Shown here: positions 24,424 to 56,537 of the stretch, in pieces
How the letters are laid out: the number at the start of each line of letters is the position of its first letter
Numbering within the stretch: the first letter of the stretch is position 1
Assembly: GCA_963807385.1 (NCBI GenBank)
Contig: CAWEBQ010000003.1
Span: 718,426 to 782,425 of the forward strand
DNA from: an uncultured Solirubrobacterales bacterium
GTDB taxonomy: Bacteria > Actinomycetota > Thermoleophilia > Solirubrobacterales > 70-9
Reading direction: 5' to 3'
Length of the DNA stretch: 64,000 bases
Position numbers and translations under genes: made by a program
Notes under the pieces: generated by a model
Seen by the model: only the letters and a program-made list of their open reading frames with translations
Told to the model about the DNA's origin: nothing
Databases searched by the model: none

Positions 24424-25383
24424 ATGCGCGCCATCGTCACGGGGACGGCGGGATTCATCGGTTCGCGCCTGTCCCGGCGACTACTGGAAGCCGGGAGCGC
24501 GGTCGTCGGGATCGATCGGATCTCCGACTATTACGACCCGGCGCTGAAGCGCGAGCGACTCGACCGCCTGGGCCGCGCCGACGGCTTCGAGCTGATCGAG
24601 GGCGACCTCTGCGAGATCGACCTCCGAGCCGTGCTGTCGGACGCGGACGTCGTCTTTCACCTGGCGGCCCAGCCGGGCGCCCGCGGCGGCTGGGGTGAGG
24701 AGTTCGGGGTCTACCAGCGCGACAACGTGACCGCCACCCAGCGCCTGCTGGAGGCCGCCCGGGAGGGCGCGCTGCGCCGGTTCGTCTTCGCCTCCTCCTC
24801 ATCGGTGTACGGGGAGGCCGAGCGCTACCCGACCGACGAGGGCCTGGAGCCGCACCCCGCCTCTCCGTACGGGATCACGAAGCTGTCCGGCGAGCAGCTC
24901 TGCCACCTGTACGGCAGGTACGGCGTGCCGGCGGTGATCCTGCGCTACTTCACGGTCTACGGGCCGGGCCAGCGCCCGGACATGGCGTTCTCCCGGTTCA
25001 TCGCCGCCGTGCTCGCGGGGCGGCCAGTGGAGGTCTTCGGCGACGGGTTTCAGGAGCGCGAGTTCACCTACGTTGATGACGCCGTCAGGGCCACAGTCGC
25101 CGCCGGTCAGCGTGGGCGGCCGGGGGCCACCTACAACATCGGCGGCGGGTCGCGAGCGAGCGTCCTCGCCGCGATCGAGCTGATCGGCGAGCTGCTGGAG
25201 CGGGTGCCCGAGGTGCTCCACCTCCCGGTGGCCGCGGGTGACCTGCGCCGTACCGCCGCCGACGTCTCCCTCGCGAAGGCCGAGCTGGGCTTCGCGCCCA
25301 GGACATCCCTACGAGCGGGACTCTCCGCCCAGCTCGACGCCACTCCGAGCGCCCGCGAGCCCGTACCCGAGATCCTCGAGTAG
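24424..25383 (+). CDS. NAD-dependent sugar-nucleotide epimerase/dehydratase (SDR family)
   Basis: Contains MRAIVTGTAGFIGSRL (GxxGxxG), S..SVYG and YGITK (YxxxK). Its 3' end overlaps the convergent GT-ST fusion gene by about 75 nt. Confidence 0.85.
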   Translation: MRAIVTGTAGFIGSRLSRRLLEAGSAVVGIDRISDYYDPALKRERLDRLGRADGFELIEGDLCEIDLRAVLSDADVVFHLAAQPGARGGWGEEFGVYQRDNVTATQRLLEAAREGALRRFVFASSSSVYGEAERYPTDEGLEPHPASPYGITKLSGEQLCHLYGRYGVPAVILRYFTVYGPGQRPDMAFSRFIAAVLAGRPVEVFGDGFQEREFTYVDDAVRATVAAGQRGRPGATYNIGGGSRASVLAAIELIGELLERVPEVLHLPVAAGDLRRTAADVSLAKAELGFAPRTSLRAGLSAQLDATPSAREPVPEILE

Positions 25384-27111
25384 CTCCCCGGCGACGGCCT
25401 CGAATGTGCGCACGGCGCCGGCGTCCATCTCGGTCCGCCAGCGACCGATCCGGTCGGGACGCGGCGGCTCGGCCACGAGCGCATGCTGCTCCGCCCGCCG
25501 TTCGGCCACGGGGGCCATGCGCTCCGCGGCTCCCAGGTGATAGCCCAGCACCGCGTCGTCCCAGGGCAGGTCGAGGAACCGCGTGAGCCGGCGGAGGGCC
25601 GGGGCCGGATCGGTCACGAGCGCCTCGTAGCGAACCTCCGTGTAGGCGTGCGGGGGTAGGCGGGAGGCCTGCCGGCGGGCGCCCACGGTGCGCTGGCGCC
25701 ACAGGCGTGCCGCGCCCTCGACATCGTCCGGCCCCCAGCTCACGCCGGCCAGCGAGACGGCGACGTCCCGGCCATCCCGGATGACCTGGACGAAGCGCGC
25801 CTCCGGCACCACCGCGCTGATCATCCGCATCCGGCGCGAGTAGCCGGGGGTCTTATCACCCCACCGCGGCTTCCCGACGCGGCGGGCGTGAACGACGTGC
25901 ACGCAGCGAACGGCGTCGGCCAGACGCAGGGGCCGGATCGCGCTGAGGTGCGCGGCCAGCTCGCCGGGATCCAGTCCGAGGGCCGGCCATCGGCGATGGG
26001 AGACGATCAACTCGTGCGTCATTCGCCGAAGCTCGTCCTGGCTAGCCCCCTCGGAGTCGAGCTTTCGCCAGCGGCGCACCAGCATCGGGATGAAGTGGGT
26101 CTCGGCCGGGATCGCTAGCCGCGGATGAGCGTCCAGCATCAACCGCAGGAGCGTGGTGCCGGAGCGCGGGGTGCCGATGACGAACGGGACCGGCGGTGGC
26201 CGGGGATCCGCCCGCAGGCGGGCCGCCGATGCGCGGAGCCGACCCGGCGTCGCCTGCGCCCGGGCCAGCGCCGTGCGCGGGTCCACCCGGGGCGCGGGGG
26301 GGGCGGTCCAGGGGCCGAGCCGCCCCAGCCGGTCTCGAAAGCGGGTGTCCTCGACGACCAGGTCGTCGGGGGTGTCAACCACCTCCCGCGCGTAATAGTC
26401 CTCGAGCTCACCGCGGCGCCAGAGCCTGTACTCGCGCCGCCGGTTGCGGTTGAACCGCTCCTTCGGGGTGTTGGCGTGCTCGATCGTGCGCCCACGGATG
26501 ATCACGCCGTGCTCGAACTGGTCGTAGGTTCGCATCTGGAAATGGAGCACCTCGACGGAGCCCAGCCGGACCGTCCTGCCGGCCGCCGGCTGCGCCGGCC
26601 GGTGCACCCCCTCGATCCTCAGCCCCGGACGGGCCCGGTGGATCCACTTCGGCAGCAGGGGCAGGTGAAGCTTGTTGACGGCCGCCCGCTGACGAAGCGT
26701 CATCCGCTCCCACCACGGCCGGCCGTCCTCCGGAGTCGGCACGAAGTTCAAGCGCCGGCACACCACGCCCCCGATGCCGGGGTCGAGGGCGGCGACCGCC
26801 TCCTTCAAGGTGCCGCTCTCCGGGAACCAGAACTCGTCCGCGTCGTTGGGGAGCACCCAGTCCGCCCCCTCCTCGTCGATCGCGATTCGCGCCATCCGGG
26901 TCAGCCACCGCGCCTGGCGGTAGACGCCCGGTTCGTCGATCACCCGGACGAGCCCACGCGTCTCGTAGTCGCGCAGGATCTCCCGCGTGCCGTCCCGCGA
27001 CCCGTTGTCCATGACGACGGCGAAGTCCACTCCCTGGGAGAAGTGGTAGTCGAGGTTCTCCCGCACGACGTCGGCCTCATCGCGTACGAGCAGGGTCATC
27101 ACCAGGCGCAT
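25309..27111 (-). CDS. Bifunctional fusion: N-terminal GT2-like glycosyltransferase domain plus C-terminal TPST-like sulfotransferase domain
   Basis: 600 aa. The N-terminal roughly 300 aa read LLVRDEADVVRENLDYHFSQGVDFAVVMDNGSRDGTREIL...NDADEFWFP and are paralogous to 47806..48900. From about aa 305 (about nt 26199 downward) it reads PFVIGTPRSGTTLLRLMLDAHPRLAIPAETHFIP...KPRWGDKTPGY...VIRDGRDVAVS. Confidence 0.85.
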   Translation of the reverse strand: MRLVMTLLVRDEADVVRENLDYHFSQGVDFAVVMDNGSRDGTREILRDYETRGLVRVIDEPGVYRQARWLTRMARIAIDEEGADWVLPNDADEFWFPESGTLKEAVAALDPGIGGVVCRRLNFVPTPEDGRPWWERMTLRQRAAVNKLHLPLLPKWIHRARPGLRIEGVHRPAQPAAGRTVRLGSVEVLHFQMRTYDQFEHGVIIRGRTIEHANTPKERFNRNRRREYRLWRRGELEDYYAREVVDTPDDLVVEDTRFRDRLGRLGPWTAPPAPRVDPRTALARAQATPGRLRASAARLRADPRPPPVPFVIGTPRSGTTLLRLMLDAHPRLAIPAETHFIPMLVRRWRKLDSEGASQDELRRMTHELIVSHRRWPALGLDPGELAAHLSAIRPLRLADAVRCVHVVHARRVGKPRWGDKTPGYSRRMRMISAVVPEARFVQVIRDGRDVAVSLAGVSWGPDDVEGAARLWRQRTVGARRQASRLPPHAYTEVRYEALVTDPAPALRRLTRFLDLPWDDAVLGYHLGAAERMAPVAERRAEQHALVAEPPRPDRIGRWRTEMDAGAVRTFEAVAGELLEDLGYGLAGARSGVELGGESRS

Positions 27112-27142
27112 CGGGCTCTCACCCTGCCATGCCCGGAGGGGT

Positions 27143-28942
27143 CTAGGGGTGCTCGATGCGGATCAGCTGATTGTCCGCCACGTCGTGGAGGGTCCGGATG
27201 GCGCCGTCGGTCCAGCGCACGGTCACACGGTCGACCGTCGTCGAGTCCCCAAGGCCGAAGTAGGTGCGCCAGTCGCCGGCCGAGTACCTCGAGCTGTCGC
27301 TCTGCCCGACCCAGGCCGTCTGCTCAGCACCGCCCGCCGCGATCCGCACCCGGGCGCCCGGGGCCTCGCGGGCACCGCTCCGGCCCCCGACGTCCACCTG
27401 CAGCCAGTGGTCGAGGGCGAGGTTGTTGCGGAACAGCGAGCTGAACCGCCCGGAGTCACCGCGGGCCGTTAGGGCCCCGTCGCGGTCGCCGTCTCCGTCC
27501 ACGTCCATCCACACCGCCCGGGCCGTCCTCAGGCTCCCGGTGGCGAGCATCCCGGTCGCGGTGAAGCCACCCTGCGGCCGCTGCTCGTAGATCCCCCCCG
27601 GGGGGGCGTAGAGGTCGAGCAGGCCGTCGTTTTGGTGGTCGATCCAGACGACTGGACCCTCCGCCTGCGCCGGCAGGCCCATCCCCGGGGGAGTGCGCGC
27701 CGCCAGGGCGCCGCGGCGGTTGGGAAGCAGGGTGAGCCCATCGCGCGCCGAGACGAGCACGTCGGCGTCGCCGTCGTTATCGAAGTCCGCCGACGCGACG
27801 CCCGCCACCTCCCCCCGGGGCAGGTGGGTCATGCGCTGTCTGCGCGCCCACCCGCCGTCCGCCCGACGCTCGAAGACGCGCAGGCCACCGCGGTCGAAGG
27901 TGATCAGCTCCGGCTTGAGGTCGCCGCGGAGGTCAACCCACTCGATCGCGGGGCCGCGCGCGCCCGCGCGCTTGAGCGGGCCTGACGCGTTCTCGAACCC
28001 CCGCCCGCGCCGAACGAACAGCCGAGTGGGCCCGTCGGTGCAAGACATCGACAGGTCGGTACGGGCGTCCCCGTCGGCGTCGATTGGCAGCGCAGCCCGA
28101 GCGCGGCAGCGGCCCTTGCGCAGCCCGCGCGCGGCCGCGAAGTCGTCGAAGACGCCGCGCGCCTGGAGCATCAGCTGGTCCTGAACCAGGTTGCCGTGGC
28201 CCTTGATGCGGCCGGCGAGCCCCCCGCGCGCGATCAGCGTGTCGCTGTCGCCGTCGGAATCCGCGTCCGCCCAGCCCATGCCGTGCCTGTCGCGGACCTG
28301 GATCGAGAACCTCGCCTTCGCCGCCTTTACCGCCTGCGAGCCGATGAAGGTCGGGTGGGCCGAGGTCTCGAGCACCTTGACCGGAAGCGCAAGCGGGACC
28401 ATCCGGACGTCAACGCGGCCGCCGGGCGGGATCGAGTAGTCCACGCGGGTGTTCGGGAGGTCGCCGCCGCCCTGGACGTCCACCCCCGCCCGCGCGCCGG
28501 ACTTGGCGATCGCCTTGACGATCCCGCGCGACTTGATCGAGCCCGAGGTGCTCACGCCGTGCGAGGCCAATCGCAGCCCGTTCGGCCGGTAGAAGACGTA
28601 AAGCCCCGGATCGCCGTGGGTCGGGGCGTTGTTGATCGCCTCGAGGCCGGGGAACGCCGGCTTGTGGTCGAGCCTCAGGTCCGAGAGCTGATTCGTAAAG
28701 CCGCCCCCGCCGTCGCCGATCAGCACCACCTGGCGGTTGTTGTGCGCGGTGGTGAAGAGATCCGGGCGGGCGTCGGCACCGACGTAGGCGACGCCCAGGT
28801 CGTAGACGCGTTGCGGGATCGGCAGATCGGTGGTCGTGAACGGGGCGAGGCGGGCCTCGGGCGAGGAGGCCCCGAACGCGAGCACGGCGACCAACACGGC
28901 GATCGCCGCGGTCTCCCTGCGATACCGCTTGCGTGCCCCCAT
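27143..28942 (-). CDS. Secreted FG-GAP/VCBS-repeat protein with a C-terminal ASPIC/UnbV domain (CRTAC1-like)
   Basis: 599 aa with an N-terminal signal-like segment AAIAVLVAVLAFGASS. Repeats include ADFDNDGDADVLV, WMDVDGDGDRD and ADADSDGDSD. The C-terminus reads GARVRIAAGG...GQSDSSRYSAGDWRTYFGLGDSTTVDRVTVRWTDG. It lies 31 nt upstream of the GT-ST fusion on the same strand. Confidence 0.8.
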   Translation of the reverse strand: MGARKRYRRETAAIAVLVAVLAFGASSPEARLAPFTTTDLPIPQRVYDLGVAYVGADARPDLFTTAHNNRQVVLIGDGGGGFTNQLSDLRLDHKPAFPGLEAINNAPTHGDPGLYVFYRPNGLRLASHGVSTSGSIKSRGIVKAIAKSGARAGVDVQGGGDLPNTRVDYSIPPGGRVDVRMVPLALPVKVLETSAHPTFIGSQAVKAAKARFSIQVRDRHGMGWADADSDGDSDTLIARGGLAGRIKGHGNLVQDQLMLQARGVFDDFAAARGLRKGRCRARAALPIDADGDARTDLSMSCTDGPTRLFVRRGRGFENASGPLKRAGARGPAIEWVDLRGDLKPELITFDRGGLRVFERRADGGWARRQRMTHLPRGEVAGVASADFDNDGDADVLVSARDGLTLLPNRRGALAARTPPGMGLPAQAEGPVVWIDHQNDGLLDLYAPPGGIYEQRPQGGFTATGMLATGSLRTARAVWMDVDGDGDRDGALTARGDSGRFSSLFRNNLALDHWLQVDVGGRSGAREAPGARVRIAAGGAEQTAWVGQSDSSRYSAGDWRTYFGLGDSTTVDRVTVRWTDGAIRTLHDVADNQLIRIEHP

Positions 28943-28995: not shown

Positions 28996-29388
28996 ATGGG
29001 CCCGATCACCAAAAGCGCGCTGGCCGGCTACGAGGACTTCAACGATCAGGACTTCGACTCCCTCCTCTCGCGGATGACGGAGGACTTCTCGTGGCACGAG
29101 GCTCCGGAGATTCCCGGGCCGAAGTCGGCGCGCACACGCGCCGAGTTCGCGAGATACCTCCGGGGCTTCGACCAGCTGTGGGACGAGTTCCGCTTCGAGG
29201 TCCTCGAGACCGCTGAGGCGGACGACATGCTCTACAGCAGAGTGGTGCTGCACGGCCGAGGCAGGGCAAGCGCAGACGCCCTCGAACTCGAGATCCACCA
29301 CGTCTGGCGCCTGCGCGATGGCCTCTTCGCGAGCATGCACGCTTACCTGGATCGCGACGAGGCGCGCGCGGCCGCGCGCGTCGACTAG
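28996..29388 (+). CDS. SnoaL/NTF2-like small protein
   Basis: 130 aa. The size and pattern (...FRFEVLETAEADDMLYSRVVLHGRGRASADALELEIHHVWRLRDGL...) are typical of the NTF2-like/SnoaL_2 fold. Same architecture as 56569..56985. Confidence 0.6.
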   Translation: MGPITKSALAGYEDFNDQDFDSLLSRMTEDFSWHEAPEIPGPKSARTRAEFARYLRGFDQLWDEFRFEVLETAEADDMLYSRVVLHGRGRASADALELEIHHVWRLRDGLFASMHAYLDRDEARAAARVD

Positions 29389-32300
29389 AGGCGCCGCTCG
29401 GTGTCGCGGATCACCCGCAGCGCCGCGTGCTGGCGCTCCGCCGAGACGACGTCTCCCTTGGCCTCGTAGAGCTGAATCGCCCTGGTGATCGGGGACACCG
29501 CCTCGGTAGGGGCGCGCGCTGCGCGCATGACGGCCCCGAGCGAGGCCAGCGCATCGGCGAGCAGAAGCGTTGTGTCGCTGGGCTCGGCCGCCGCGATCGC
29601 CTCGCGCGCCAGCCGCTCCGCCTCGGCCAGATCGCCGCTGGCCAGCAGGCTCTCGACCCGCGCGAGTCGCCACTTGACCTGGGCGTCGAGATCGTCGTGC
29701 GCGGCCATCCGCTCGGCCCGGCGGGTGAGCTCCAGCGCCTCCTCAATTCGGCCCTGGCGTACGATCGCTACGGCGAGCATCGGCGCCACCGTGGCGGCGA
29801 TGTGCTTGGCGCCGATCGAGTCGAAGTAGGCCAGCGCATCCCGAAGCTCGACCTCCGCCGCAACCGGATTGGAGCGGAGCGGCTCCACCGCCGCGGTCGA
29901 GATCGGCAGGTAGGCGTTGTGAGCGGGCTGGCCGAGCTCGTCGAAGATCCGGCGCGCGGAGTTGAACGCGTCCGCCGCCTCCTCCGCCCGGCCCGAGCGC
30001 GCAAGCATCTCGCCCATGCGCGTAAGCGTGGAACCCTCCAGCGAGCGGTTCCCGCGGGCACGCGCCCAGTCGAGGTCGTCCCGCGCCCGGGCGACGACGC
30101 GCTCGCATGGGGATGGGCCGAAGACGGCCACCTGCAGCAGCCAATAGCGAATCCAGGCCTCGACGCCCTGGTCTCCGGCGTCGCGGGCGAACTCCAGCGC
30201 GTGCTCGAAGGCCTCCTGCGCGGCCGCCTGTTCGCCGCGATCGGAGTGGGCCTTGCCCAGCAGGTGCCATGCCTTGGCCGCGCCGAGATCGTCGCCGAGG
30301 CCCTGGAAGACGCCCGTCAGCTCCGCGGCGCCGGAGCGCCCGTTCTCCGCCCACCAGGTCGGCTCCGTGAGTCGGCGCAGGCTGAGTTCGAGGATCCGCA
30401 CCTCCGCGTCGGTCCGGGGATCGACTCCTCGCGCCGCTCGCCTTCGCAGCTCCGCCAGGGCGTCGGCGGCCGCGGACGTCTCGCCCCCTCGGACGAGCGC
30501 CGTCCCGAGGGACAGCAGCGGCTCCAGGCGCGACGAATCCTCCTCCGAGGCGAGGGCGACGACCCTTGCGTAGAACTGCGCGGCGGTGACGTCGTCCTGG
30601 CGGGCGCTCGCGCGGTTTCCGGCCGCCATCAGATGCTCGGCTGCCTTGGCCGTCACCCTCTGGGCGTCGGCGGCTCCGGCCAGGAGCTCGCGGTGATACC
30701 CGGCGGCGGCCTCGAAGTGGTAGCCGACGATCTCCTCGGCCTCACCACGCCGATCGTTGGTCCACTCAAGCATCCAGTCGCCGACCTGCTCGTGCAGCTG
30801 AGCACGTCGGGCCTTCGGGATCGCCTCGTAGACGGCGTCCCGAAGCAGCAGGTGCCGAAACCGGAGCATGTCCGGCGCCGTGCCCCTGCGGCGGACCGTC
30901 TCGACCACGAGCTTGCGAGCGAGCCCTGCCAGGGGCTCGGTCATGTCCTCGTCGGTCATCCGCTGGACGGCGCTCGCCCAGAACTCCATGCCGACCACCG
31001 CCGCCAGCTCGGCGCAGGCGCGCTCGCGATCGTCAAGATGGTCCACGCGCGAGGCGAGGATCGTCTCGATCGAGGGGGGTACGTCAAACTCCGCCAGGTC
31101 GTCGGCCGCGGTCCACCCGGACTCCGATCTGGTCAGGCGACCGTCGTCGATCAGCATGCGGAGCACCTGCTCGACGAACAGCGGGTTGCCCGCTGCGAGC
31201 TCGACGATCCGGGCGCGGGTCGTGTCCGGTAGGGCCGCGCCCGCGAGCTCCTCCACCAGCGCCTCGATATCGGCATCGGGCAGTGGGCCCAGGGGGATCG
31301 TCGTCGGGCCGGGCTCCGCCCATCCCGATCGGCGCGCGAGTAGCTCGAAGCGCGCAGTGCACGCGATCAGCACGGCGGCGTCCAGCTGGCCCGGGAGGCG
31401 CTCGATCAGGTCCAGGAGCGGATCCTCGGCCCACTGGAGATCCTCCAAAACCACCACGACGGGGCCGTGCGCCGCCCGCGAGCTGAGCAGCGTCCGCAGG
31501 GCCCACAGGATCTGCTCGGGGGCCTTGGAGGCCGGCTCGACGCCGATCAGCTGGGCGAGCTCGGACGCGGCGACGTCGGCCCGCTCGGAGCCGTCGAGCG
31601 CCGCGGCGATCTTCGCTCGCGCCGAGCGGGAGTCGTCGTCCTCGGTGATTCCCGCCGCCTGTCTCACGATCTCGGCCACCGCCCACCAGGTGATGCCCTC
31701 CCCGTAGGAGAGGCAGCGCCCCGCCAGCACCAGGGCTCTGCCGTGGTAGCGATCGACCACCTCCGCGAGCAGACGGGTCTTGCCGACGCCGGCGTCGCCC
31801 AGAAGGATCAGGAACTCCGGCGATCCGCGCGCCACGCACCGCTCGAACGCAACGGTCAGCAGCGAGAGCTCCCGGCTCCGGCCCACCAGCGGCTGATCCG
31901 CCAGCGGCACCGCCGCTTCCCGCGCCGCCGGGCCAAGCACTTGGTACGCCCTGATCGGCTCGGTGCGGCCCCGGAGGTCGAGGTCGCCCGCGAACTCCGC
32001 GTCCATCTCGCGGCGAACGAGGACATACGTCTCCTCGCCGATCACGAGGCCTCCCGGCGGCGCCCAGGATTGAAGGCGGGCCGCTACGTTCATCGTGTCC
32101 CCCAGGCTGACCCTCCGTCCCGCGACCTGACGGCCGACGACGACGGTGCCGGTGTTCACGCCCACGCGCATCTCAAGCCGCGTGCCCAGGCGGGGCTCGA
32201 CCTCGGCGTTCAGGGCCTGGAGCTCCTCGAACATCGCGATCCCGGAACGTACCGCGCGCAGCGCCTCGTCGGGCTGGGCCACCTCGGTGCCGAACACCCC

Positions 32301-35355: not shown

Positions 35356-35371
35356 CTGGAAGAATCGCCCC

Positions 35372-35887: not shown

Positions 35888-35898
35888 ATGACCGTCAC

Positions 35899-38875: not shown

Positions 38876-38885
38876 CCCCCGCACT

Positions 38886-38902: not shown

Positions 38903-38930
38903 TGACCCTGCCACAATTCGCGGCCGTCTC

Positions 38931-43421: not shown

Positions 43422-43504
43422 GAGCCGGGCGAGGATAGGCGCAAAGCCGCAACGTGCGGGAACGCCGCGGCAGGGCCACCGCAGCGGCGTCTAGCATCGG
43501 CGCC

Positions 43505-44359
<855 letters not shown>

Positions 44360-45011: not shown

Positions 45012-45021
45012 GCTCAGCGCC

Positions 45022-47745: not shown

Positions 47746-47805
47746 TGACGCGAATACTCGAGGGTGAGACGCTTGGGACGAGAAGCCCTACCTACACTCC
47801 GCGCC

Positions 47806-48900: not shown

Positions 48901-49832
48901 TCATCGCGCGTCGCTTCAGGCCCCGGCGCCGGGCGCCGGGACTCCCCGCGCCCTTCGTCGTCGGCGTCGGCCGCTCCGGCACAACGCTCCTGCGGCTGAT
49001 GCTCGACGCCCACCCCGACCTGGCGATGCCGCCGGAGACCGGATTCGCGCCGAGCGTGATCCGCGCAGGCCGCAACGGCCCGACACCCGCGAGCATGATG
49101 GAGCTGCTGCGCGAGCAGCGGAGCTGGGGCGACCATCACGTCGATGATGCCCAGCTCGAGCGCCGCCTCCGCGCCGCCAGAAGGCTCGACGGGACATCGG
49201 CCCTGCGCGCCTTCTACGGCCTCTACGCCGAGCGCCAGGGCAAACCGCGCTGGGGCGACAAGACCCCCGGGTACGTGAAGAAGATGCCGATGATCGAGCG
49301 CGCGCTCCCGGAGGCGCGTTTCATCCACGTGATCCGCGACGGACGAGACGTCTCGCTCTCCCGCGGGAGGCGCCGCCTCGCCGAGGGCGACGCGCCGGGG
49401 CCCGGGCGGGTCGCCGAGATGTGGCGCAACCGGATCCTGCGCGCCCGCGAGGACGGTGAGCGCCTCCGTCACTACCTGGAGATCCGCTACGAGGACCTGG
49501 TGACGGACACCGAACCCACCCTTCGTCGGGTCGCGGACCTGATCGAGCTCCCCTGGGACGGCGCGATGCTGACCTACTACGAGCGCGCGCCCGAGCGCCT
49601 GGCCGAGATGGCGCGGGACCTGCCCGCGACAGGCAAGAAGCTCTCGCGCTCGGGAGACGAGCGAATGGCTGCCCACGCCCTCGCGGCCGAGCCGCCAAAG
49701 GCCGACAGAATCGCGACGTGGCGCGAGCGCATGGGCGAGGAGGACCTCACGGCCTTCGAGGACGTGGCCGGGGACCTGCTCGCCGAACTCGGATACGAGG
49801 TCGGGAGCGGTCAGACTTCGGGCGTCGCATGA
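48897..49832 (+). CDS. TPST-like sulfotransferase
   Basis: ATGA overlap. Contains PFVVGVGRSGTTLLRLMLDAHPDLAMPPETGF, KPRWGDKTPGY, VIRDGRDVSLS and LEIRYEDLV. Confidence 0.9.
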   Translation: MIIARRFRPRRRAPGLPAPFVVGVGRSGTTLLRLMLDAHPDLAMPPETGFAPSVIRAGRNGPTPASMMELLREQRSWGDHHVDDAQLERRLRAARRLDGTSALRAFYGLYAERQGKPRWGDKTPGYVKKMPMIERALPEARFIHVIRDGRDVSLSRGRRRLAEGDAPGPGRVAEMWRNRILRAREDGERLRHYLEIRYEDLVTDTEPTLRRVADLIELPWDGAMLTYYERAPERLAEMARDLPATGKKLSRSGDERMAAHALAAEPPKADRIATWRERMGEEDLTAFEDVAGDLLAELGYEVGSGQTSGVA

Positions 49833-51709
49833 GCGCTGGCGCCGCGCAGAGCCCCGCCCCCTTTGTGGTCGGCATGAACCGCTCGGGCACGACCCTGCTG
49901 CGGATGATGCTCGATGCCCATCCCGAGCTCGTGATTCCGCCCGAGACGCACTTCATCCCAGACCTGATCAAGGCGACCAGGAAACGGGGCGCGAAGCCCG
50001 CTGACGCGCTGGCGGCGATGAGGTCCCACCGCGAATGGGAGGACTTCGCCTTCACCGACGCCGAGGCGCTGGCCTGGCTGGAGGGGCTGCCCCGCCTGGA
50101 GCCCGGCCCCGCCGTGCGCGCCTTCTACAAGGCCTACGCAGCCCGCGCGGGCAAGCCGCGATGGGGAGATAAGACGCCCCGCTACGTGCTGAAGATGCCG
50201 CGGCTCCAGGCGGCCCTGCCGGAGGCGCGGTTCGTCCACGTGATCCGCGACGGACGGGACGTCGCGCTCTCGGTACTCGACCGGACCGTGAAAGACCTCG
50301 ACGCGCCCGAGGTCGCCCGGCGCTGGAGCCGCAAGATCGAGCGGGCGCGCGCCGACGCACCTGCCCTAGCGCACTACCTCGAGGTGCGCTACGAGGAGCT
50401 CGTGTCCAACCCGAGGCCGGTGCTCGAGCGGATCTGCGAGTTCCTCGACCTGCCCTTCGATGAGGCCATGCTCGACTACCACGAGCGCTCCGGCGAGCGC
50501 CTGGAGGAGATGCGCCGCGGGCTGCCGGGGGCCGGCAACTCCGCGGAGCTCTCGGTCGAGCGACGGATGGAGACCCACCGCCGCACCACCGCGCCGCCCG
50601 ACGCCTCGAGGGCGACGCGCTGGCGCGAGGAGATGAGCGCGGAGGATCGGTCCGGCTTCGAACGCGTCGCCGGCGGAACGCTTGGCCGCCTCGGCTACAG
50701 ACCCTCCAACACCCCAAGCGTCGCGTTTTTGATCTGCGTGGAGGAGGGCCAGCTCGAGCAACAGGGGATCCTGTTCGCGCGCTCGCTGCGGCGCTTCGGC
50801 GGGCGCTTCGCGGGCTGCGCCGTCCACGCCTACGCGCCCCGCAAGGGACGCAACCCCTCGGCAGGGACCACCGCGGCGCTGGAGTCGGAGGGCGTCACGG
50901 TCCACACCGAGGTCCTGAACGCCGACCACGACTTCTACCCCTTTGCGAACAAGATCTACGCGGCCGCCGCGGCGGAGCGCGACCTCGACGAGGACGTGGT
51001 CGTCTTCACCGACTCCGACACGGTGATCATGAGCTCCCCGGACGCGCTCGAGCTGGCCGAGGACACGGACGTGGCGGCGGCGCCGGCGTTCCACGTCAAC
51101 AAGGCGAGCACGGGGCCCGGCCACCGGATGGAGGGCTACTGGGACCGGGTCTGGGAGCTGGCCGGCGTGCCCGGCGAGCCGCCCTGGGTCGAGACGTCGG
51201 AGCGCAAGAGGCCGGTCCGCTGCTACTTCAACGCGGGGATCCTGGCGGCGAGGCGGTCCTCCGGCTACTGCTCGGAGTGGCTGGAGCTGTGGAGGATGCT
51301 GCTGGCGGAGCAGCACTTCCCCGATGGCAAGATGATGGTCACCGACCAGGTGGCGATCTCGGCCGCGGTCGCCCGCCGGCCAGACCGGTTCGTTGCTTTC
51401 GAGCGCACCTACAACTACAACGTCCACCGCCGCCCCTACTACTCGGGCGGCATGGACACGGCCGACCTGCCGGACCTGGTCCACCTGCATTACCACCAGT
51501 GGTTCAACCGCCGGAACGTCCTTCGCGACCTGCGCCCGCCGCTCAGCCCGGACACCGAGCAGTACCTGTGGCTCGACTCGGAGCTGCCCCTCGAGCCCGC
51601 GATCCGCGCCCCGCTCCCCAGGCCCGGCCGCAAGCGCTCGCGCTGGCGCAACCGGGGCCTGGGCAAGCTGCGCTCGCCGTTGAGGGAGATCGGGAGGTCG
51701 GACAAGTGA
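49829..51709 (+). CDS. Bifunctional fusion: N-terminal TPST-like sulfotransferase plus C-terminal GT-A-like DxD domain
   Basis: ATGA overlap. The first roughly 295 aa contain PFVVGMNRSGTTLLRMMLDAHPELVIPPETHFIP...KPRWGDKTPRY...VIRDGRDVALS. From about nt 50711 it reads VAFLICVEEGQLEQQGILFARSLRRFGG...VVFTDSDTVI...YFNAGILAAR, which is paralogous to 42489..43421. Confidence 0.85.
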   Translation: MSAGAAQSPAPFVVGMNRSGTTLLRMMLDAHPELVIPPETHFIPDLIKATRKRGAKPADALAAMRSHREWEDFAFTDAEALAWLEGLPRLEPGPAVRAFYKAYAARAGKPRWGDKTPRYVLKMPRLQAALPEARFVHVIRDGRDVALSVLDRTVKDLDAPEVARRWSRKIERARADAPALAHYLEVRYEELVSNPRPVLERICEFLDLPFDEAMLDYHERSGERLEEMRRGLPGAGNSAELSVERRMETHRRTTAPPDASRATRWREEMSAEDRSGFERVAGGTLGRLGYRPSNTPSVAFLICVEEGQLEQQGILFARSLRRFGGRFAGCAVHAYAPRKGRNPSAGTTAALESEGVTVHTEVLNADHDFYPFANKIYAAAAAERDLDEDVVVFTDSDTVIMSSPDALELAEDTDVAAAPAFHVNKASTGPGHRMEGYWDRVWELAGVPGEPPWVETSERKRPVRCYFNAGILAARRSSGYCSEWLELWRMLLAEQHFPDGKMMVTDQVAISAAVARRPDRFVAFERTYNYNVHRRPYYSGGMDTADLPDLVHLHYHQWFNRRNVLRDLRPPLSPDTEQYLWLDSELPLEPAIRAPLPRPGRKRSRWRNRGLGKLRSPLREIGRSDK

Positions 51710-52605
51710 GCGCCGAATCCGTAGCGCCGGTGCCGTTCATCGTCGGGGTGCCGCGCTCCGGGACGACGATGCTGCGGCTGATGCTCGACGCGCACCCCGA
51801 CCTGGCGATCCCGCCCGAGACCTATTTCGTCACCAACCTGATCGAGGCCGGGTACGGCGGCGCCGGGCCCGAGCAGCTCGCCAACGTGCTCGTCAGCCAC
51901 CGGCGCTGGGGCGATCTGGGAATCGAGGAAGCCGAGCTTCGCCGCCGCCTGAACGAGATCGGGCGGCCTAGCGGCGGGGACGCGGCGAGGGTGGCGTTCG
52001 AGCTCTACGCCCACGGCCGCGGCAAGCCGCGCTGGGGCGACAAGACGCCGGCGTACCTCACCAACATCGCGGAGATCCACGAGGCGCTGCCCGAGGCCCG
52101 CTTCATCCACCTGATCCGCGACGGGCGCGACGTCGCGCTCTCCATCCTGCGGATGCCGGAGGCCGACCGGCCGATGCGCCGGCCCGACTCCGTCGGGCTC
52201 GTCGCGAGGCGCTGGAGCCGGCGGATCAAGCGCGCCCGCGCCCAGGCCGATGGCCTCCCCCACTACCTCGAGCTCCGCTACGAGGACCTGGTGCGCGATC
52301 CCGGGCCCGCCTTGCGCCAAGCGTGCGACCTGATCGAGCTGCCGTTCACCGAGTCGATGCTGGACTTTCACGCCGGGGCCTCGGAGCGCCTGGCCGAGAT
52401 CGACCGCGACCTCGCGGCGCGCGACGATCTACCGGCCCAGTCCGCTGAGGGCCGGACCGCGCCGCACGCCCTGGCGTCGCAGCCGCCAAGCGAAGGACGG
52501 ATCGGCGTCTGGCGCGAGGAGATGACCGCCGAGCAGCTGGCCGAGTTCGAGGACAAGGGCGGCGAGATGCTGCGGTCGCTCGGCTACGACGGGGGCGGGG
52601 GATGA
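51706..52605 (+). CDS. TPST-like sulfotransferase
   Basis: GTGA overlap. Contains PFIVGVPRSGTTMLRLMLDAHPDLAIPPETYF, KPRWGDKTPAY and LIRDGRDVALS. Confidence 0.9.
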   Translation: MSAESVAPVPFIVGVPRSGTTMLRLMLDAHPDLAIPPETYFVTNLIEAGYGGAGPEQLANVLVSHRRWGDLGIEEAELRRRLNEIGRPSGGDAARVAFELYAHGRGKPRWGDKTPAYLTNIAEIHEALPEARFIHLIRDGRDVALSILRMPEADRPMRRPDSVGLVARRWSRRIKRARAQADGLPHYLELRYEDLVRDPGPALRQACDLIELPFTESMLDFHAGASERLAEIDRDLAARDDLPAQSAEGRTAPHALASQPPSEGRIGVWREEMTAEQLAEFEDKGGEMLRSLGYDGGGG

Positions 52606-53549
52606 GCCCGTTGCTGCGACGCCGCTCCACGCCCGGTGGCCCTCCCGCCCCGTTCGTGGTCGCGAGCCCACGGTCGGGCACCACGCTCCTGCGGATGATG
52701 CTCGACGCCCATCCCGAGATGGCGGTTCCCTTCGAGACCCATTTCGTACCCGAGTTGATCGGCGCCGTTGAGGCGGGCGGCGGTGCGGCCTCGGCGCTTC
52801 AGGTCGTTACCGGGCACCGTCGATGGGGCGATTTCGGGCTCGACGACGAGGCCTTGGCGGAACGGCTGCGCTCGCACGGCGAGCTCACCCCCGGCGACGC
52901 CGTGCGCAGCTTCTACACCCTCTACGCGGAATCGCAGGGGAAGCCCCGCTGGGGCGACAAGACCCCGGAGTACGTGGAGTTCATGCGGCCGATCGCGGGA
53001 GCGCTCGGGGAGGCGCGCTTCGTCCACGTCATCCGCGACGGGCGCGACGTGGCGATGTCGCGGATCCGCTGGCGCCAGAAGCGCAGCGGCAAGACACCGC
53101 CCGTGCGTCGGATGGCCCGGCGCTGGAAGGAGGCGATCACCGTCGCCCGCGAGCAGGCGAGGAAGGTGGGTCACTACGTCGAGGTTCGCTACGAGGACCT
53201 CGTGGCCGAGCCGGAGGCAACGCTGGGGAGGATCTGCGACTTCGCGGAACTGGACTACGACTCGGCGATGCTGAGCTACCACGAGCGAGCCTCCGAACGG
53301 ATGGCGGAGATCGACCGGACGCTCCCGGGCACAAGCGACCGGGTTGAGCTGGACGCTTCGCAGCGCCTCGCCAAGCACGAGATGGCGACCAAGCCGCCGG
53401 AGCGCGACCGGATCCTGGCCTGGCGCAACGACATGAGCGAGGCCGACCGGCGGGAGTTCGAGGCCATCGCCGGGAAGCTCCTGCGGGACCTCGACTACCC
53501 CGTGGGCGACGGTGCGGTGGCCGCGGCCGCGGTGGTAGCGGAGGGCTGA
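52602..53549 (+). CDS. TPST-like sulfotransferase
   Basis: ATGA overlap. Contains PFVVASPRSGTTLLRMMLDAHPEMAVPFETHF, KPRWGDKTPEY and VIRDGRDVAMS. Confidence 0.9.
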   Translation: MSPLLRRRSTPGGPPAPFVVASPRSGTTLLRMMLDAHPEMAVPFETHFVPELIGAVEAGGGAASALQVVTGHRRWGDFGLDDEALAERLRSHGELTPGDAVRSFYTLYAESQGKPRWGDKTPEYVEFMRPIAGALGEARFVHVIRDGRDVAMSRIRWRQKRSGKTPPVRRMARRWKEAITVAREQARKVGHYVEVRYEDLVAEPEATLGRICDFAELDYDSAMLSYHERASERMAEIDRTLPGTSDRVELDASQRLAKHEMATKPPERDRILAWRNDMSEADRREFEAIAGKLLRDLDYPVGDGAVAAAAVVAEG

Positions 53550-54472
53550 TGGCCGCGCACCCCGCCCCCGCGCCGTTCATCGTCGCCAACCCCGGGTCGG
53601 GCACGACCCTGCTGCGGATGATGCTTGACGCTCATCCGGACCTGGCGATCCCGCCGGAGACCCACTTCGTCCCCGAGGTGATCGATCGGGCCCGCGAGAT
53701 CCGCAGGGCCAGCGACCGCAAGCCCACCGGCGAGGAGCTAGCCGACGCGATCGCCGCGGGACGCCGCTGGGAGGACTTCCACCTCGACCGCGGCGAGCTG
53801 GCGAAGCGCATGTCGGGACGCAGGGGCGAGGCCGGGGCGCGGGCGGCGATACGCGCCTTCTACGAGATGTACGCGGAGGCTCAGGGCAAGGCGCGCTGGG
53901 GCGACAAGACGCCCGACTACCTGCTGTCAATCCGGCGGATCGGCAAGACGCTGCCCGAGGCCCGATTCGTCCACCTGATCCGCGACGGTCGCGACGTCGC
54001 CACCTCCCGGCGGCGCTGGCGTGAGCGGGCCGGCGGACGGGAGCGCTCGGTCACGGCCTGGGCCGGACAGTGGCAGCGATGGATCGAAACCGCTCGCAAG
54101 CAGTCGGGCGACGTCGCGCACTACCTGGAGGTCCGCTACGAGGACCTCGTCACGGACACGGAGCCGGCGCTGCGCCGGGTCTGCGAGTTCGCGGAGCTCG
54201 ACTTCCGCCCAGAGATGCTCGATTACCACGAGCGCGCCGCCGGACGGCTTCGCGAGCTTGACCGCTCGCTGCCCGCCGCCGAGGGCAAGGGCGCGCGCGA
54301 GGCCTCTCACCGTCAGGCCAAGCACTCGCTGACGGCCGCGCCGCCGCAGGAGGCGAAGGTGCAGGCGTGGCGCCACGACATGAGCGAGGCCGACCGGGTT
54401 GCGTTCGAGGCGGAGGCCGGAGAGCTGCTCGCCGAGCTCGGCTACCCGGTGGGGGAGGCGGTCTCCTCGTGA
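53549..54472 (+). CDS. TPST-like sulfotransferase
   Basis: TGATG overlap. Contains PFIVANPGSGTTLLRMMLDAHPDLAIPPETHF, KARWGDKTPDY and LIRDGRDVATS. The 5'-PSB motif has G in place of R (PGSGTT). Confidence 0.88.
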   Translation: MAAHPAPAPFIVANPGSGTTLLRMMLDAHPDLAIPPETHFVPEVIDRAREIRRASDRKPTGEELADAIAAGRRWEDFHLDRGELAKRMSGRRGEAGARAAIRAFYEMYAEAQGKARWGDKTPDYLLSIRRIGKTLPEARFVHLIRDGRDVATSRRRWRERAGGRERSVTAWAGQWQRWIETARKQSGDVAHYLEVRYEDLVTDTEPALRRVCEFAELDFRPEMLDYHERAAGRLRELDRSLPAAEGKGAREASHRQAKHSLTAAPPQEAKVQAWRHDMSEADRVAFEAEAGELLAELGYPVGEAVSS

Positions 54473-55566
54473 GGGTCGGCGTGGTGACGAAGTGGTTCAA
54501 CCGGGGGCAGCCGGTCGTCGGACGCTACCTCCGCTCGGCGCTCGATGAGCTGGGCCACGAGACTTTCGTCCTGGCGAGACCGAGGCGCGAGGACGGCCCG
54601 ATGCCGGGCGCCCTCTCCAATGACGACGTTTGGGATCAGCCCGGCGTCACCGAGGGCTCCGCCTACGACATCCCGATGCGGGAGTACGAGGCATGGGCCG
54701 CGGAAAACGGGATCGAGGTCGTCTTCTGCGACCAGAACTACCAGTTCGACGAGGTCCGGAGGCTGCGCGAGGGGGGGCTGCGGACCGTGGGCCGATTCGT
54801 CTGGGAGCACTTCTCCGAGCAGCATGTCGATGGCGCGGGGTCCGCCTACGACGTGGTGTACTCGTTCACCCGGTCCGAGCAGGCCCGCTACGCCGAGCTG
54901 GGGATCGAGAGCCCCTACGTCACGTGGGGCTGCCACCCGGAGCTGGTGGCGGTCGGCGATGCGAGGCGACCCGCCGGCGACGGCCTGGTCCGAGCGGTCT
55001 TCCCCGGTGGGTTCCTCGGCAACCGCAAGCCGGTCGAAACGGTGCTGGAGGCCTTCGCGCGAACCGTGGATGAACGACTGCGGCTGCTGGTGAAGACCCA
55101 GGTTGAGCGCGAGCAGCTGAAGCCGGTCCTCGCCGCGGCAGAGGCCGACCCCAGGATCGAGGTGCTGGTGGAAAACGAGGCGACAGCCGATCACCTGCAG
55201 CGCTTCGCCGCGAACGACTTCTGCGTCGCGCCCGCCCGCTGGGAGGGCCTGGGGCTGCCGCTTTATGAGTCGATGGCGTTCGGGATGCCGGTGATCACGA
55301 ACGACTACCCGCCGCTGAACGAGGCGGTCACCGACGACGTGAACGGCCTGCTGGTCTCCGGCTCCCCCACCGGCAAGACCACGCGCTCGGGCATCCCGTG
55401 GCAGACGCCGGATGTGCGCGAGCTGGCCGCAGCTATCGAGCGCCTTGCCGACGATGAGCTTCGCGAACGGCTGAGCGCCGGGCAGATCGCGCTCCGCGAC
55501 GGCGCCCGGGCCTGGAGCCACACCGTGTCGGGGATCGGCGCGCTGGCCGAGGGGCGAGAGCCGTGA
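54469..55566 (+). CDS. GT4-family (GT-B) glycosyltransferase, paralog B
   Basis: The GTG at 54469 (GTGA overlap) gives VRVGVVTKWFNRGQPVVGRYLRSALDELGHETFVLARP...PARWEGLGLPLYESMAFGMPVITNDYPPLNEAVTDDVNGLLV. It is collinear with 32570..33655. Confidence 0.88.
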   Translation: MRVGVVTKWFNRGQPVVGRYLRSALDELGHETFVLARPRREDGPMPGALSNDDVWDQPGVTEGSAYDIPMREYEAWAAENGIEVVFCDQNYQFDEVRRLREGGLRTVGRFVWEHFSEQHVDGAGSAYDVVYSFTRSEQARYAELGIESPYVTWGCHPELVAVGDARRPAGDGLVRAVFPGGFLGNRKPVETVLEAFARTVDERLRLLVKTQVEREQLKPVLAAAEADPRIEVLVENEATADHLQRFAANDFCVAPARWEGLGLPLYESMAFGMPVITNDYPPLNEAVTDDVNGLLVSGSPTGKTTRSGIPWQTPDVRELAAAIERLADDELRERLSAGQIALRDGARAWSHTVSGIGALAEGREP

Positions 55567-56537
55567 GCGAGCGGCTAGGCCCGCTCGCCATCGCGGGACG
55601 CAAGCTCAGCCTGATGAAGCGCCGCAGGCGCCTGCGGCGCGCCGCGGCTCGGCTCCACGGCGGCACGCCCGATCCGCCGGCCCCGTTCATCGGCGGGGCG
55701 ACGCGATCGGGAACCACGCTGCTTCGGCTGATGCTGGACGCCCATCCGGATCTGGCAATCCCATCCGAGACGCATTTCGTGCCGGCCATGATCTCGCGCT
55801 GCGTCGAGGGGCCGGTTGAGGCGGGCGAGCTGGCGGCGATCGCAACAAGCCATCCGCGCTGGGGCGACTTCGGTCTCGAGGCCGCCGAGTACGTGGCGCG
55901 GGTGCAGGCCCTGGAGCCACTGACCGCCGCCGAGGCCGTGCGCGAGTTCTACCGCCTCTACGCCGACGGCCAAGGGAAGGTCCGGTGGGGCGACAAGACC
56001 CCTGGCTACATCCGCAAGACCCGGCCGATCCAACGGGTGCTGCCGGAGGCCCGGTTCATCCACATGATCCGCGACGGGCGTGACGTCGCCCTGTCGGTGA
56101 TGCCACTCAACTTCGGCCCCTCGACCGTCACCGGAGCCGCCGAGCTTTGGGTCAAGCGGGTGAGCCTGGGCCGAAAGCAGGCCAAGGCCGCCGACCACTA
56201 CGCCGAGGTCTTCTACGAGGAGCTGATCGAGCAGACGGAGCCGGCGCTGCGGCAGGTGTGCGATTACCTCGACCTGCCCTTCCACCGCGCCATGCTGGAC
56301 TACCACCAGCGGGCGGGAGAACGCCTGGCCGAGAAGGCACGCGACCTCAAAAAGGAGGACGGGCGCACCCAGCCCGCCGAGGCGCGGATCACGAGTCACG
56401 CCCTCGCCTCGGAGGCGCCGCGGGCCGACCGCATCGGCCGCTGGCGCCGCGAGATGACCGAGGCGGACGTGGCGGAGTACGAGCGGGTCGCCGGGGAGCT
56501 CCTCGCCGAGCTCGGCTACGAGCTGGGCTCGGGCTGA
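55563..56537 (+). CDS. TPST-like sulfotransferase (last gene of the operon)
   Basis: GTGA overlap. Contains PFIGGATRSGTTLLRLMLDAHPDLAIPSETHF, KVRWGDKTPGY and MIRDGRDVALS. Confidence 0.9.
   Translation: MSERLGPLAIAGRKLSLMKRRRRLRRAAARLHGGTPDPPAPFIGGATRSGTTLLRLMLDAHPDLAIPSETHFVPAMISRCVEGPVEAGELAAIATSHPRWGDFGLEAAEYVARVQALEPLTAAEAVREFYRLYADGQGKVRWGDKTPGYIRKTRPIQRVLPEARFIHMIRDGRDVALSVMPLNFGPSTVTGAAELWVKRVSLGRKQAKAADHYAEVFYEELIEQTEPALRQVCDYLDLPFHRAMLDYHQRAGERLAEKARDLKKEDGRTQPAEARITSHALASEAPRADRIGRWRREMTEADVAEYERVAGELLAELGYELGSG

Follow-up and report, generated by a model that had tools for sequence, protein, structure and literature searches.

A purine gene-embedded cluster of eleven sulfotransferase domains and six glycosyltransferase domains in an uncultured Solirubrobacterales bacterium, a candidate locus for a sulfated glycoconjugate

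Sulfated polysaccharides are generally regarded as rare in bacteria, and the gene clusters for synechan and for marine capsules combine only few sulfotransferases (STs) with genes for Wzx/Wzy- or ABC-dependent export, for chain length, and for priming. The region described here, positions 24,424–56,537 of a 64-kb stretch of DNA from an uncultured Solirubrobacterales bacterium (the whole stretch being referred to as the window), contains eleven ST domains (ST1 to ST11 in the order of their position) and six glycosyltransferase (GT) domains from three families, namely two GT4, two GT2-like, and two copies of a domain termed X. To our knowledge this is the densest cluster of ST and GT genes, and it is found in a soil actinobacterial order. 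The locus is distinctive in its ST density, in two protein families without Pfam match (X and an AsnB-like protein), in its conservation throughout a clade, and in its tight embedding in a purine operon. The cluster is rather likely to make a densely, multiply sulfated glycoconjugate, which the GTs would build and the STs would sulfate in the cytoplasm.

Cyanobacteria are described in the synechan study as unique among bacteria in making sulfated polysaccharides (PMC8205485), and the other examples retrieved by a literature search were marine bacteria. The locus resembles the synechan (xss) cluster of Synechocystis PCC 6803 (PMC8205485) and the capsule clusters of Vibrio and Cobetia (PMC11641403, PMC11766843) in that several GTs and STs of the 3'-phosphoadenosine-5'-phosphosulfate (PAPS) type occur together. 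It differs from these systems by its eleven ST domains, by the lack of any export, polymerase, or priming gene in the cluster, by its occurrence in the Actinomycetota, and by the interleaving with a purine operon. With the animal heparan sulfate (HS) machinery (NDST, 2-OST, 6-OST, and 3-OST) it shares a set of paralogous STs and the presence of bifunctional enzymes, the regiospecificity being inferred in the case of the present locus; ST5 is nearest to the HS 3-O-sulfotransferases, and X is related in fold to LARGE1, GT8, and GT6. However, this likeness is one of function and based on distant homology, eight of the STs are TPST/CurM/NoeE-like paralogs, and the proteins are predicted to be soluble and cytoplasmic, unlike the Golgi type II membrane enzymes. 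Cytoplasmic PAPS-dependent sulfation of oligosaccharides is also the activity of the rhizobial NoeE and NodH, and the best NCBIfam match of ST6 is NoeE, the Nod factor fucose sulfotransferase, but the rhizobial systems use one ST per modification without any paralog series, and ST6 is not an equivalog since it reaches 41.7 bits against a cut-off of 500. Tyrosylprotein sulfotransferases (TPST1/2, and RaxST in bacteria) are among the best sequence matches with solved structures and have the RSGTT, ET, (D/N)K(T/D)P, and RDGR...S motifs in common with the STs studied here; in contrast to the raxX-raxST-raxABC system, the locus contains no genes for a substrate peptide or its exporter, and the fusion partners of its STs are GTs. 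The mycobacterial sulfolipid-1 (SL-1) locus (stf0, pks2, papA1/2, and mmpL8) offers a further parallel as source of an actinobacterial sulfated glycoconjugate, and an MmpL-type transporter is encoded in the window, but a Stf0-family ST, a polyketide synthase (PKS), and a Pap acyltransferase are missing, and in the related loci L001–L003 no MMPL gene adjoins the cluster (related loci are labelled L001 etc., and representative proteins P0317 etc.).

Genuine genes were selected by their third-position GC content (GC3) in the window, which has ~71% G + C, and were then annotated with Pfam (Table 1). All eleven ST domains scored above the gathering score of the family Sulfotransfer_3 (PF13469; 27 bits), with values of 41.6–146.7 bits, and were located at the coordinates listed in an earlier note on this DNA; tblastn with all eleven STs found no further copy in the 64-kb window. 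That note had missed the interleaving with purine genes, but its domain content and coordinates were borne out, and the ATG starts that it gave for ST2 (38931) and the GT2-like gene GT2b (47806) are favoured by the lengths of the orthologs in L001. In an alignment of all eleven STs, G21 and T22 of the 5'-phosphosulfate-binding (5'-PSB) loop are invariant, with S20 and T23 nearly so, and in the 3'-phosphate-binding (3'-PB) motif (R-D-x6-S) R148 and S156 are invariant in 11 of 11, with D149 nearly so; E40 and K123 are nearly invariant. An R or K precedes SGT in ten of the eleven STs, the exception being ST10, where Gly replaces the loop Arg (NPGSGTT versus xxRSGTT) and does so in all four orthologs (L001 14662, L002 14496, L003 14535, and L005 1). 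This Arg is catalytic in TPST2 and equivalent to the Lys of cytosolic sulfotransferases, and ST10 may have an altered catalysis or a non-catalytic role.

Table 1. Genes and domains of the sulfotransferase cluster and its surroundings (positions in the 64-kb window).
Feature	Position	Strand	Evidence and remarks
ST1, C-terminal part of GT2-like fusion	25309..27111 (ST part ~25309-26220)	-	PF13469 129.6 bits, residues 310-519
ST2, TPST/CurM/NoeE-like paralog	38862..39836 (probable start 38931)	+	PF13469 146.7 bits
ST3, divergent orphan subfamily	39833..40699	+	PF13469 52.1 bits; 5'-PSB loop LQKSGTS
ST4, divergent subfamily	45022..45957	+	PF13469 41.6 bits; stop overlaps purS start by 4 bp
ST5, heparan-sulfate-3-O-sulfotransferase-like	46880..47683	+	PF13469 46.0 bits, PF00685 37 bits; starts directly after purQ stop
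ST6, TPST/CurM/NoeE-like paralog	48897..49832	+	PF13469 123.4 bits
ST7 (N-terminus) fused to domain X (C-terminus, 50717-51709)	49829..51709	+	PF13469 130.1 bits, residues 12-212
ST8	51706..52605	+	PF13469 136.6 bits
ST9	52602..53549	+	PF13469 116.9 bits
ST10	53549..54472	+	PF13469 124.1 bits; 5'-PSB loop NPGSGTT
ST11, last gene of overlapping operon	55563..56537	+	PF13469 113.8 bits
GT2-like N-terminus of ST1 fusion (Glyco_tranf_2_4)	25309..27111	-	PF13704 50 bits, residues 10-99
GT2b, GT2-like	47764..48900 (probable start 47806)	+	PF13704 64.6 bits
GT4a	32570..33655	+	Glycos_transf_1 66 bits
GT4b	54469..55566	+	Glycos_transf_1 62 bits
Domain X, free-standing GT-A fold DxD glycosyltransferase	42489..43421	-	AlphaFold2 (AF2) model and Foldseek; no Pfam match
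Asparagine-synthetase-B-superfamily amide synthetase, 597 aa	40696..42489	-	AF2 model and Foldseek; clade-restricted family
NAD-dependent NDP-sugar epimerase/dehydratase	24421..25383	+	Pfam Epimerase 201 bits
purD, purE, purB (housekeeping)	34075..37179	+	Pfam GARS, AIRC, Lyase_1/ADSL_C
purC	43454..44359	+	SAICAR_synt 259.7 bits
purS (45954-46214) and purQ (46211-46879)	45954..46879	+	PurS 84 bits; GATase_5 125 bits
Secreted FG-GAP/ASPIC-UnbV beta-propeller protein	27143..28942	-	Pfam FG-GAP_3, UnbV_ASPIC; N-terminal hydrophobic anchor or signal sequence
Adenylate-cyclase/AAA16/TPR STAND-type protein	29385..32504	-	Pfam Guanylate_cyc, AAA_16, TPR
Cytochrome P450 between purB and ST2	37227..38570	-	Pfam p450 214 bits
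DUF5701 protein	44382..45011	+	PF18959 200 bits
SnoaL-like gene, convergent after ST11	56569-56985	-	SnoaL domain
Lipoprotein-like gene	57025-57663	-	N-terminal sequence ends LSGCGG
TetR regulator	57699-58274	-	Downstream of ST11
MmpL3-like RND (MMPL) transporter	59929-62067	-	3.4 kb downstream of ST11

Eight of the STs (1, 2, 6, 7, 8, 9, 10, and 11) constitute one paralog family with 42–57% mutual protein identity, and ST3, ST4, and ST5 represent three other subfamilies, whose identity to the eight and to each other does not exceed 30%. Judged from these identities, the lines of ST3, ST4, and ST5 are much older than the eight-paralog expansion and the eleven domains are not the product of one expansion, so that the single family expansion assumed earlier holds for the eight paralogs but not for the other three. 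The best matches of ST5 in the Protein Data Bank (PDB) were HS 3-OST-3A1, 3-OST-1, and 3-OST-5 (E from 1e-8), no meaningful PDB sequence match was obtained for ST3 and ST4, and Stf0 (PF09037) gave only a sub-threshold match, to ST9 (17.7 bits, cut-off 22). The eight paralogs matched TPST1/2 (E 7e-14 to 1e-11) and the CurM/OLS polyketide sulfotransferases (1.8e-13 to 1.2e-11). One alternative is that these paralogs are protein or peptide tyrosine STs resembling RaxST or TPST, which modify a peptide or secreted proteins such as the FG-GAP/ASPIC protein encoded in the region. TPST1/2 are indeed their top PDB matches (E ~1e-13), with the RSGTT, ET, and DKTP/NKDP motifs being alignable, and homologs of the secreted FG-GAP/ASPIC protein flank X and ST genes in several other loci (L015–L017, L022, L023, and L069). 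A role in tyrosine sulfation is nevertheless highly doubtful, as the CurM/OLS enzymes match equally well, the locus offers neither a small Tyr-rich precursor open reading frame (ORF) nor a peptidase-type exporter and the intergenic gaps of the main operon measure 80 bp or less, and the STs are fused to GTs in the window and their homologs to polysaccharide GTs and Wzt.

Domain fusions are the strongest evidence on the acceptor that the sequences provide. Besides the GT2-ST1 and ST7-X fusions of the window, the latter of which also exists in L001–L003 (626–627 aa), the ST6 family was surveyed among 50%-identity representatives (694 clusters at E ≤ 1e-30). Homologs of ST6 with 40–50% identity are fused to Glyco_tranf_2_4 plus GT92, to GT2 plus GT-D, to a protein in which GT4, WbsX, RgpF, and the capsule-synthesis domain NKWYS are united, or to Wzt, the ABC-transporter ATPase for O-polysaccharides (ABC_tran plus Wzt_C), in part together with GT2; the Wzt fusions are confined to distant homologs. 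In the 1298-aa protein P0361, an ST2/6-like domain is followed by ST6-, ST7-, and ST11-like domains, an arrangement which suggests that neighboring ST paralogs physically work together. Some polyproteins of this type may stem from frameshifts in long-read assemblies, but errors are improbable where three in-frame junctions follow one another. Tandem arrays of two to four STs were observed in the polyproteins P0361, P0362, P0363, P0365, and P0375, of which the last combines an ST4-like with a TPST-like domain. Because of the fusions, the likeness of ST5 to carbohydrate sulfotransferases, and the epimerase/dehydratase gene, a multiply sulfated glycan is proposed as the product, the glycan acceptor, the single product for all genes, and the regiospecificity of the copies being the inferred parts of this proposal. 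Since no transmembrane segments were predicted in any ST or GT protein of the cluster and PAPS is a cytoplasmic compound, the reactions are expected to occur in the cytoplasm. There, the GTs would assemble a short glycan (an oligosaccharide or repeat unit), each ST orthogroup would use PAPS to sulfate a hydroxyl or sugar of its own, and the GT-ST and ST-GT fusions would couple elongation with sulfation, whereupon the densely sulfated glycoconjugate would be exported by machinery encoded elsewhere.

Pfam and pairwise identities agree with the earlier observation that GT4, GT2-like, and GT-A-like DxD domains are each present exactly twice. GT4a and GT4b are 54% identical, GT2b and the N-terminus of the ST1 protein 35%, and the free-standing X (42489–43421) and the C-terminus of ST7 (50717–51709) 41%; a GT4 gene adjoining purD is retained in L032, L040, and L068. 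Domain X had no match in Pfam, NCBIfam, or the PDB sequences. Its AF2 model (pLDDT 95.9) was related by Foldseek to the GT6 ABO transferases, LARGE1, WbbM, UGGT (GT24), and GT8 (probability 1.00, E ~1e-8, TM-score ~0.5), and also to glycogenin and XXYLT1. In an alignment of 25 homologs D100 and D102 (FTDSD) were invariant, and so was H257 of a C-terminal His cluster, of which H255 and H263 were found in at least 90%. The earlier assignment as a GT-A-like DxD domain is upheld by the modeled fold and the invariance of that motif, and X appears to be a retaining-type GT-A family that is seemingly undescribed.

The second family, the 597-aa AsnB-like protein, likewise gave no match in Pfam, NCBIfam, or the PDB sequences, a profile search included. 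Its AF2 model (pLDDT 91) matched TsnB9, beta-lactam synthetase, and AsnB in Foldseek (E 1e-14 to 1e-12) and has a two-domain fold, Ntn-like and PP-loop, with an invariant SGGRDSR motif (G276, G277, D279, and S280). The protein begins with MADDGG and is devoid of an N-terminal Cys; it is probably not a glutamine amidotransferase and in this respect like beta-lactam synthetase. Going by the modeled fold, it would activate a carboxylate by adenylation and convert it to an amide, a uronic acid being one conceivable substrate. The gene is found in only some of the related loci. A second paralog with 48% identity (P0317) is encoded on the source contig of the window, which is 958 kb long, and the family appears to be confined to metagenomic sequences of the Solirubrobacterales type.

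The ST and GT genes alternate with purD-E-B, purC, and purS-Q, and the region is not a self-contained island. A dnaK-dnaJ-hspR-clpB operon is followed by the epimerase gene, by GT2-ST1, the FG-GAP/ASPIC gene, and the cyclase-STAND gene (all on the minus strand), and by GT4a and a gene with a GYD domain. Then come purD-purE-purB, the P450 gene (minus strand), ST2-ST3, the genes of the AsnB-like protein and X (both on the minus strand), purC, and the DUF5701 gene, followed by ST4-purS-purQ-ST5 and GT2b-ST6-ST7/X-ST8-ST9-ST10-GT4b-ST11, and finally by the convergent SnoaL gene and the genes of a lipoprotein, a TetR regulator, a beta-helix protein, and the MMPL transporter. The gaps at the ST4/purS, purS/purQ, and purQ/ST5 junctions are -4, -4, and 0 nt, and all junctions among the eight genes from GT2b through ST11 are overlaps of 4 or 1 nt. 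These adjoining ST and GT genes are therefore likely transcribed together with purS and purQ. In a scan for promoters and terminators, sites were no more frequent than expected by chance.

The distribution of the cluster was analyzed with domain X as marker and one genome per GTDB species, which yielded 229 relatives; the best 80 of these were examined and 84 loci were scanned with hidden Markov models. Nearly all of the best 80 belong to uncultured Solirubrobacterales or Thermoleophilia metagenome-assembled genomes (MAGs), many of them from the MFD series. Remoter copies of X exist in Planctomycetota, Thermoanaerobaculia, and filamentous cyanobacteria, and homologs with 32–35% identity were found in Calothrix, Rivularia, Scytonematopsis, and Plectonema. 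The homologs of ST6 form more than 7000 clusters (90% identity) at E ≤ 1e-20, the named ones being mostly from Solirubrobacterales. The gene order, pur genes included, is the same in L001–L003 and L005–L007, and is similar in L008, L011, L014, L016, L022, L023, L040, L050, L061, and L068. ST-rich clusters surround purC-purS-purQ in 16 of the 84 loci. Where both purS and purQ are present (17 loci), an ST gene lies immediately upstream of purS in 14, the remaining three loci ending at this point, and the next gene after purQ on the same strand encodes an ST or GT in all 17. In L003 a block of ST and GT genes is placed between purQ and purL, and in L002 (3478–4629) ST4 and purS were called as a single gene for a 383-aa fusion of the ST with PurS, a subunit of FGAM synthase. 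An epimerase gene, too, adjoins ST and GT4 genes in L040.

Clear orthologs of ST4, ST5, and ST7 are present in most Thermoleophilia loci and those of ST2 and ST3 in several, whereas ST8, ST9, and ST10 have clear orthologs in the closest lineages only. ST2 orthologs (66–83% identity) were identified in L001, L003, L006, L007, L032, L040, L050, L055, L056, L061, and L068. The identity of ST3 orthologs is 61–73% across the Thermoleophilia and 47–48% for those that adjoin X in L052, L059, L065, and L066, which are MAGs of Planctomycetota and other groups, and even in the Planctomycetota MAGs X is accompanied by both ST3-like and ST4-like genes. The history of the cluster is, as read from these orthologs, layered. 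In about half of its loci, X is not accompanied by any ST at a distance of up to 10 kb (L009, L010, L012, L018–L021, L024–L039, and others; L073–L084), and X therefore has a second context besides ST clusters. Sulfatases (PF00884) recur beside ST-rich loci, 12 of the 25 loci having a total of 30 such genes (including L002 19348–20834 and L006 20243–20893), and none was found in the 64-kb window; their recurrence would fit turnover of a sulfated polymer. In L001 purB is broken into four pieces and in L003 purC and X are split, which suggests indel errors of the assemblies and calls for caution with gene lengths and fusions in these two loci.

The order and arrangement of the genes also bear on the possibility that there is no single pathway, and that expanded STs and assorted GTs acting on unrelated substrates (metabolites, lipids, or xenobiotics) gathered in a loosely organized pur cluster whose gaps tolerate insertions. 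The genes do form three sub-clusters on both strands with P450, DUF5701, and STAND regulator genes in between, the slot after purQ is variable among the more distant lineages (methyltransferases and an FAD oxidase in L004, fewer STs in L008 to L023), and actinobacterial pur clusters can hold unrelated genes, as exemplified by Mycobacterium tuberculosis, where cyp126 (CYP126A1) sits between purB and purC (PMC5270475). For the cluster as a whole this explanation is nonetheless unlikely, since overlaps of 4 or 1 bp connect the eight genes of the GT2b–ST11 block, their order has been kept across several lineages separated from the window by a pairwise dS of 0.45–0.86, adjacent paralogs are fused elsewhere (P0361), and GT-ST fusions exist in the window itself. 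Applied to the outlying genes, it is plausible. In the more distant locus L004, this slot is filled by another combination of GT, ST, and methyltransferase genes. The P450 gene of the window (37227–38570) occupies the same position in L003, L006, L007, and L032, and was considered as a candidate ortholog of CYP126A1, but other P450s, among them CYP120- and CYP51-like enzymes, match it best in the PDB, and the likeness is positional only.

The earlier note had interpreted the STs as an old expansion maintained by selection instead of a recent amplification or assembly artifact, and the all-against-all alignments, the phylogeny with relatives, and the synteny comparison that it proposed were carried out and agree with this view. 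Near-identical copies, the sign that would have spoken for the contrary, were searched for, and the codon-aligned DNA identity of the eight paralogs turned out to be only 56–64%. Their third-position identity of ~0.5 was judged to be roughly that expected by chance at a GC3 of ~0.9 and hence to reflect synonymous saturation. As had been noted, the paralogs share only short identical runs: the longest exact run is 29 nt, and the 26-mer at 39273–39298 and 49245–49270 and its 20-nt version at 52027–52046 were found exactly at these positions. Gene conversion was rejected as the origin of the 26-mer, which codes for a conserved motif (PRWGDKTPG) at a genomic GC3 of ~0.9 and is not accompanied by any longer identical tract of note. 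In a neighbor-joining tree with 100 bootstraps, each ST of the window clusters with the gene in the same position in L001–L003 (bootstrap 89–100; 100 for the ST9 orthogroup), whereas the branching among the paralogs is unresolved, with deep nodes below 50. These deep nodes are compatible with local duplication as well as with independent acquisition of the paralogs. Duplication of modules, as envisaged previously, is confirmed for the domain families but not for blocks of genes, and an en-bloc duplication found no support: ST1, which is fused to a GT2 domain, is nearest to ST11 and not, as expected for a copied GT2 plus ST module, to ST6, the neighbor of GT2b, and the deep nodes have bootstraps below 50.

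Compared with the orthologs in L001 and L003, the dN/dS ratios of the STs and GTs range from 0.12 to 0.38 (0.19–0.21 for ST10), and those of purC, purS, and purQ from 0.07 to 0.15. Synonymous saturation, positional orthology, and these ratios corroborate the old, selectively maintained expansion. Ten alignment positions are constant inside the orthogroups and have at least four states between them, compared with 0 in 100 label shuffles, and several of them flank the RSGTT, DKTPxY, and R256/H260 motifs; these positions lend modest support to the proposed functional diversification of the copies. The G + C content of the window is flat (0.67–0.74), GC3 is 0.87–0.94 in ST and housekeeping genes alike, the region contains no tRNA gene, and Pfam scans of the window detected no integrase or transposase, in keeping with the previous statement that neither such genes nor a compositional break permit the region to be called a mobile island. 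That the repeats represent a recent amplification, an assembly artifact, or a recently acquired island has a negligible probability: nothing more than the repetitive domain content speaks for it, and the divergence of the copies, the identical gene order in four independent metagenomic assemblies, the homogeneous G + C and GC3, and the lack of tRNA, integrase, and transposase genes contradict it. At the level of sequence comparison, the evolutionary conclusions (old age, positional orthology, and purifying selection) are solid, and a chromosomal, vertically inherited gene neighborhood of an uncultured Solirubrobacterales lineage is the best explanation for the locus.

Several observations weigh against a glycoconjugate made by the whole cluster. 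The genes form three sub-clusters on both strands with unrelated genes between them, and a single product is an assumption. Among solved structures, protein-tyrosine and polyketide sulfotransferases come nearest to the eight paralogs, and not carbohydrate-specific ones, the 5'-PSB loop of ST10 is without its catalytic Arg, and some of the metagenomic fusions could be frameshift artifacts. The window encodes no priming polyprenyl-phosphate sugar transferase, flippase, polymerase, Wzm/Wzt, OPX, or PCP protein, and none of these recurs in the 25 ST-rich loci; the genes of PAPS synthesis (cysC/D/N) are absent from the window as well. Literature support for the product was not found either, as full-text searches combining sulfotransferases with Solirubrobacterales, Thermoleophilia, Solirubrobacter, or Conexibacter gave nothing relevant.

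Another alternative is that the acceptor is a non-polymeric lipid or secondary metabolite, so that a glycolipid like SL-1, a terpenoid, or a polyketide would be sulfated and leave the cell through the MMPL protein encoded nearby. The MmpL-family RND transporter gene is accompanied by the tetR gene 3.4 kb downstream of the cluster, P450 and SnoaL-like genes are close by, the CurM/OLS sulfotransferases are among the best PDB matches, and phosphatidylinositol-synthesis genes are located at 12–15 kb of the window. However, the MMPL, TetR, and SnoaL genes are not conserved beside the cluster in L001–L003, where a sulfatase gene, a beta-lactamase-like gene, or purL is found instead, genes of PKS, acyltransferases, and terpene synthases are missing, and the likeness to Stf0 stays below the threshold. 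A lipid or metabolite acceptor is thus very improbable, and if the product were a sulfated glycolipid, it would count as a sulfated glycoconjugate all the same and overlap with the one proposed here.

A more specific version of the sulfated glycoconjugate proposal is a hypersulfated, glycosaminoglycan (GAG)-like glycan on which eight or more regiospecific STs and three GT types, one of them a new GT-A family, would act as a soluble assembly line, with translational coupling to purS and purQ; in this full form it must be regarded as tentative and rather unlikely. The coupling to purS and purQ would then link sulfation, for which PAPS is made from ATP, to the purine supply. Uncultured Solirubrobacterales are abundant soil bacteria, and a GAG-like product would make them an unrecognized microbial source of the ester-sulfate pool in soil and provide a bacterial analogue of the sulfation codes of animal GAGs. 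If the broader proposal of a sulfated glycoconjugate is correct, the cluster would stand for a class of envelope or matrix polymers not described before and for the unusual case of secondary glycan genes being translationally coupled to core purine genes. The diversified ST orthogroups could serve glycan engineering, and X and the AsnB-like protein add two protein families without Pfam match.

As to the remaining genes, NCBIfam provided no equivalog-level name for the GT4s, the epimerase, the FG-GAP protein, or the DUF5701 protein. The best NCBIfam models for the epimerase (24421..25383) were dTDP-glucose 4,6-dehydratase and GalE, both below their cut-offs. DUF5701 is not conserved at this place in the related loci, and in L001 and L002 the slot is occupied by an acetyltransferase gene on the opposite strand. 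A 343-aa ORF on the plus strand (56671–57702) was dismissed as probably spurious, the opposite strand carrying the SnoaL and lipoprotein-like genes. The STAND-type protein at 29385..32504 is a possible regulator with a putative link to the cluster. It is one of three large AAA_16 STAND-type proteins in the window, all encoded on the minus strand (1–1920, 7614–10475, and 29385–32504); one of the three has a LuxR helix-turn-helix domain, and one has an adenylate-cyclase domain and TPR repeats. About 10 kb upstream of the ST region, at 12109–14803 on the minus strand, genes for a myo-inositol-1-phosphate synthase, a CDP-alcohol phosphatidyltransferase, and a PAP2 phosphatase occur together and look like a phosphatidylinositol-synthesis module, whose connection to the glycan cluster, for example in supplying a lipid anchor, would be pure speculation. 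Further upstream (3012–5207, plus strand), the window encodes a 731-aa protein with ten matched stretches of RTX calcium-binding (HemolysinCabind) repeats.

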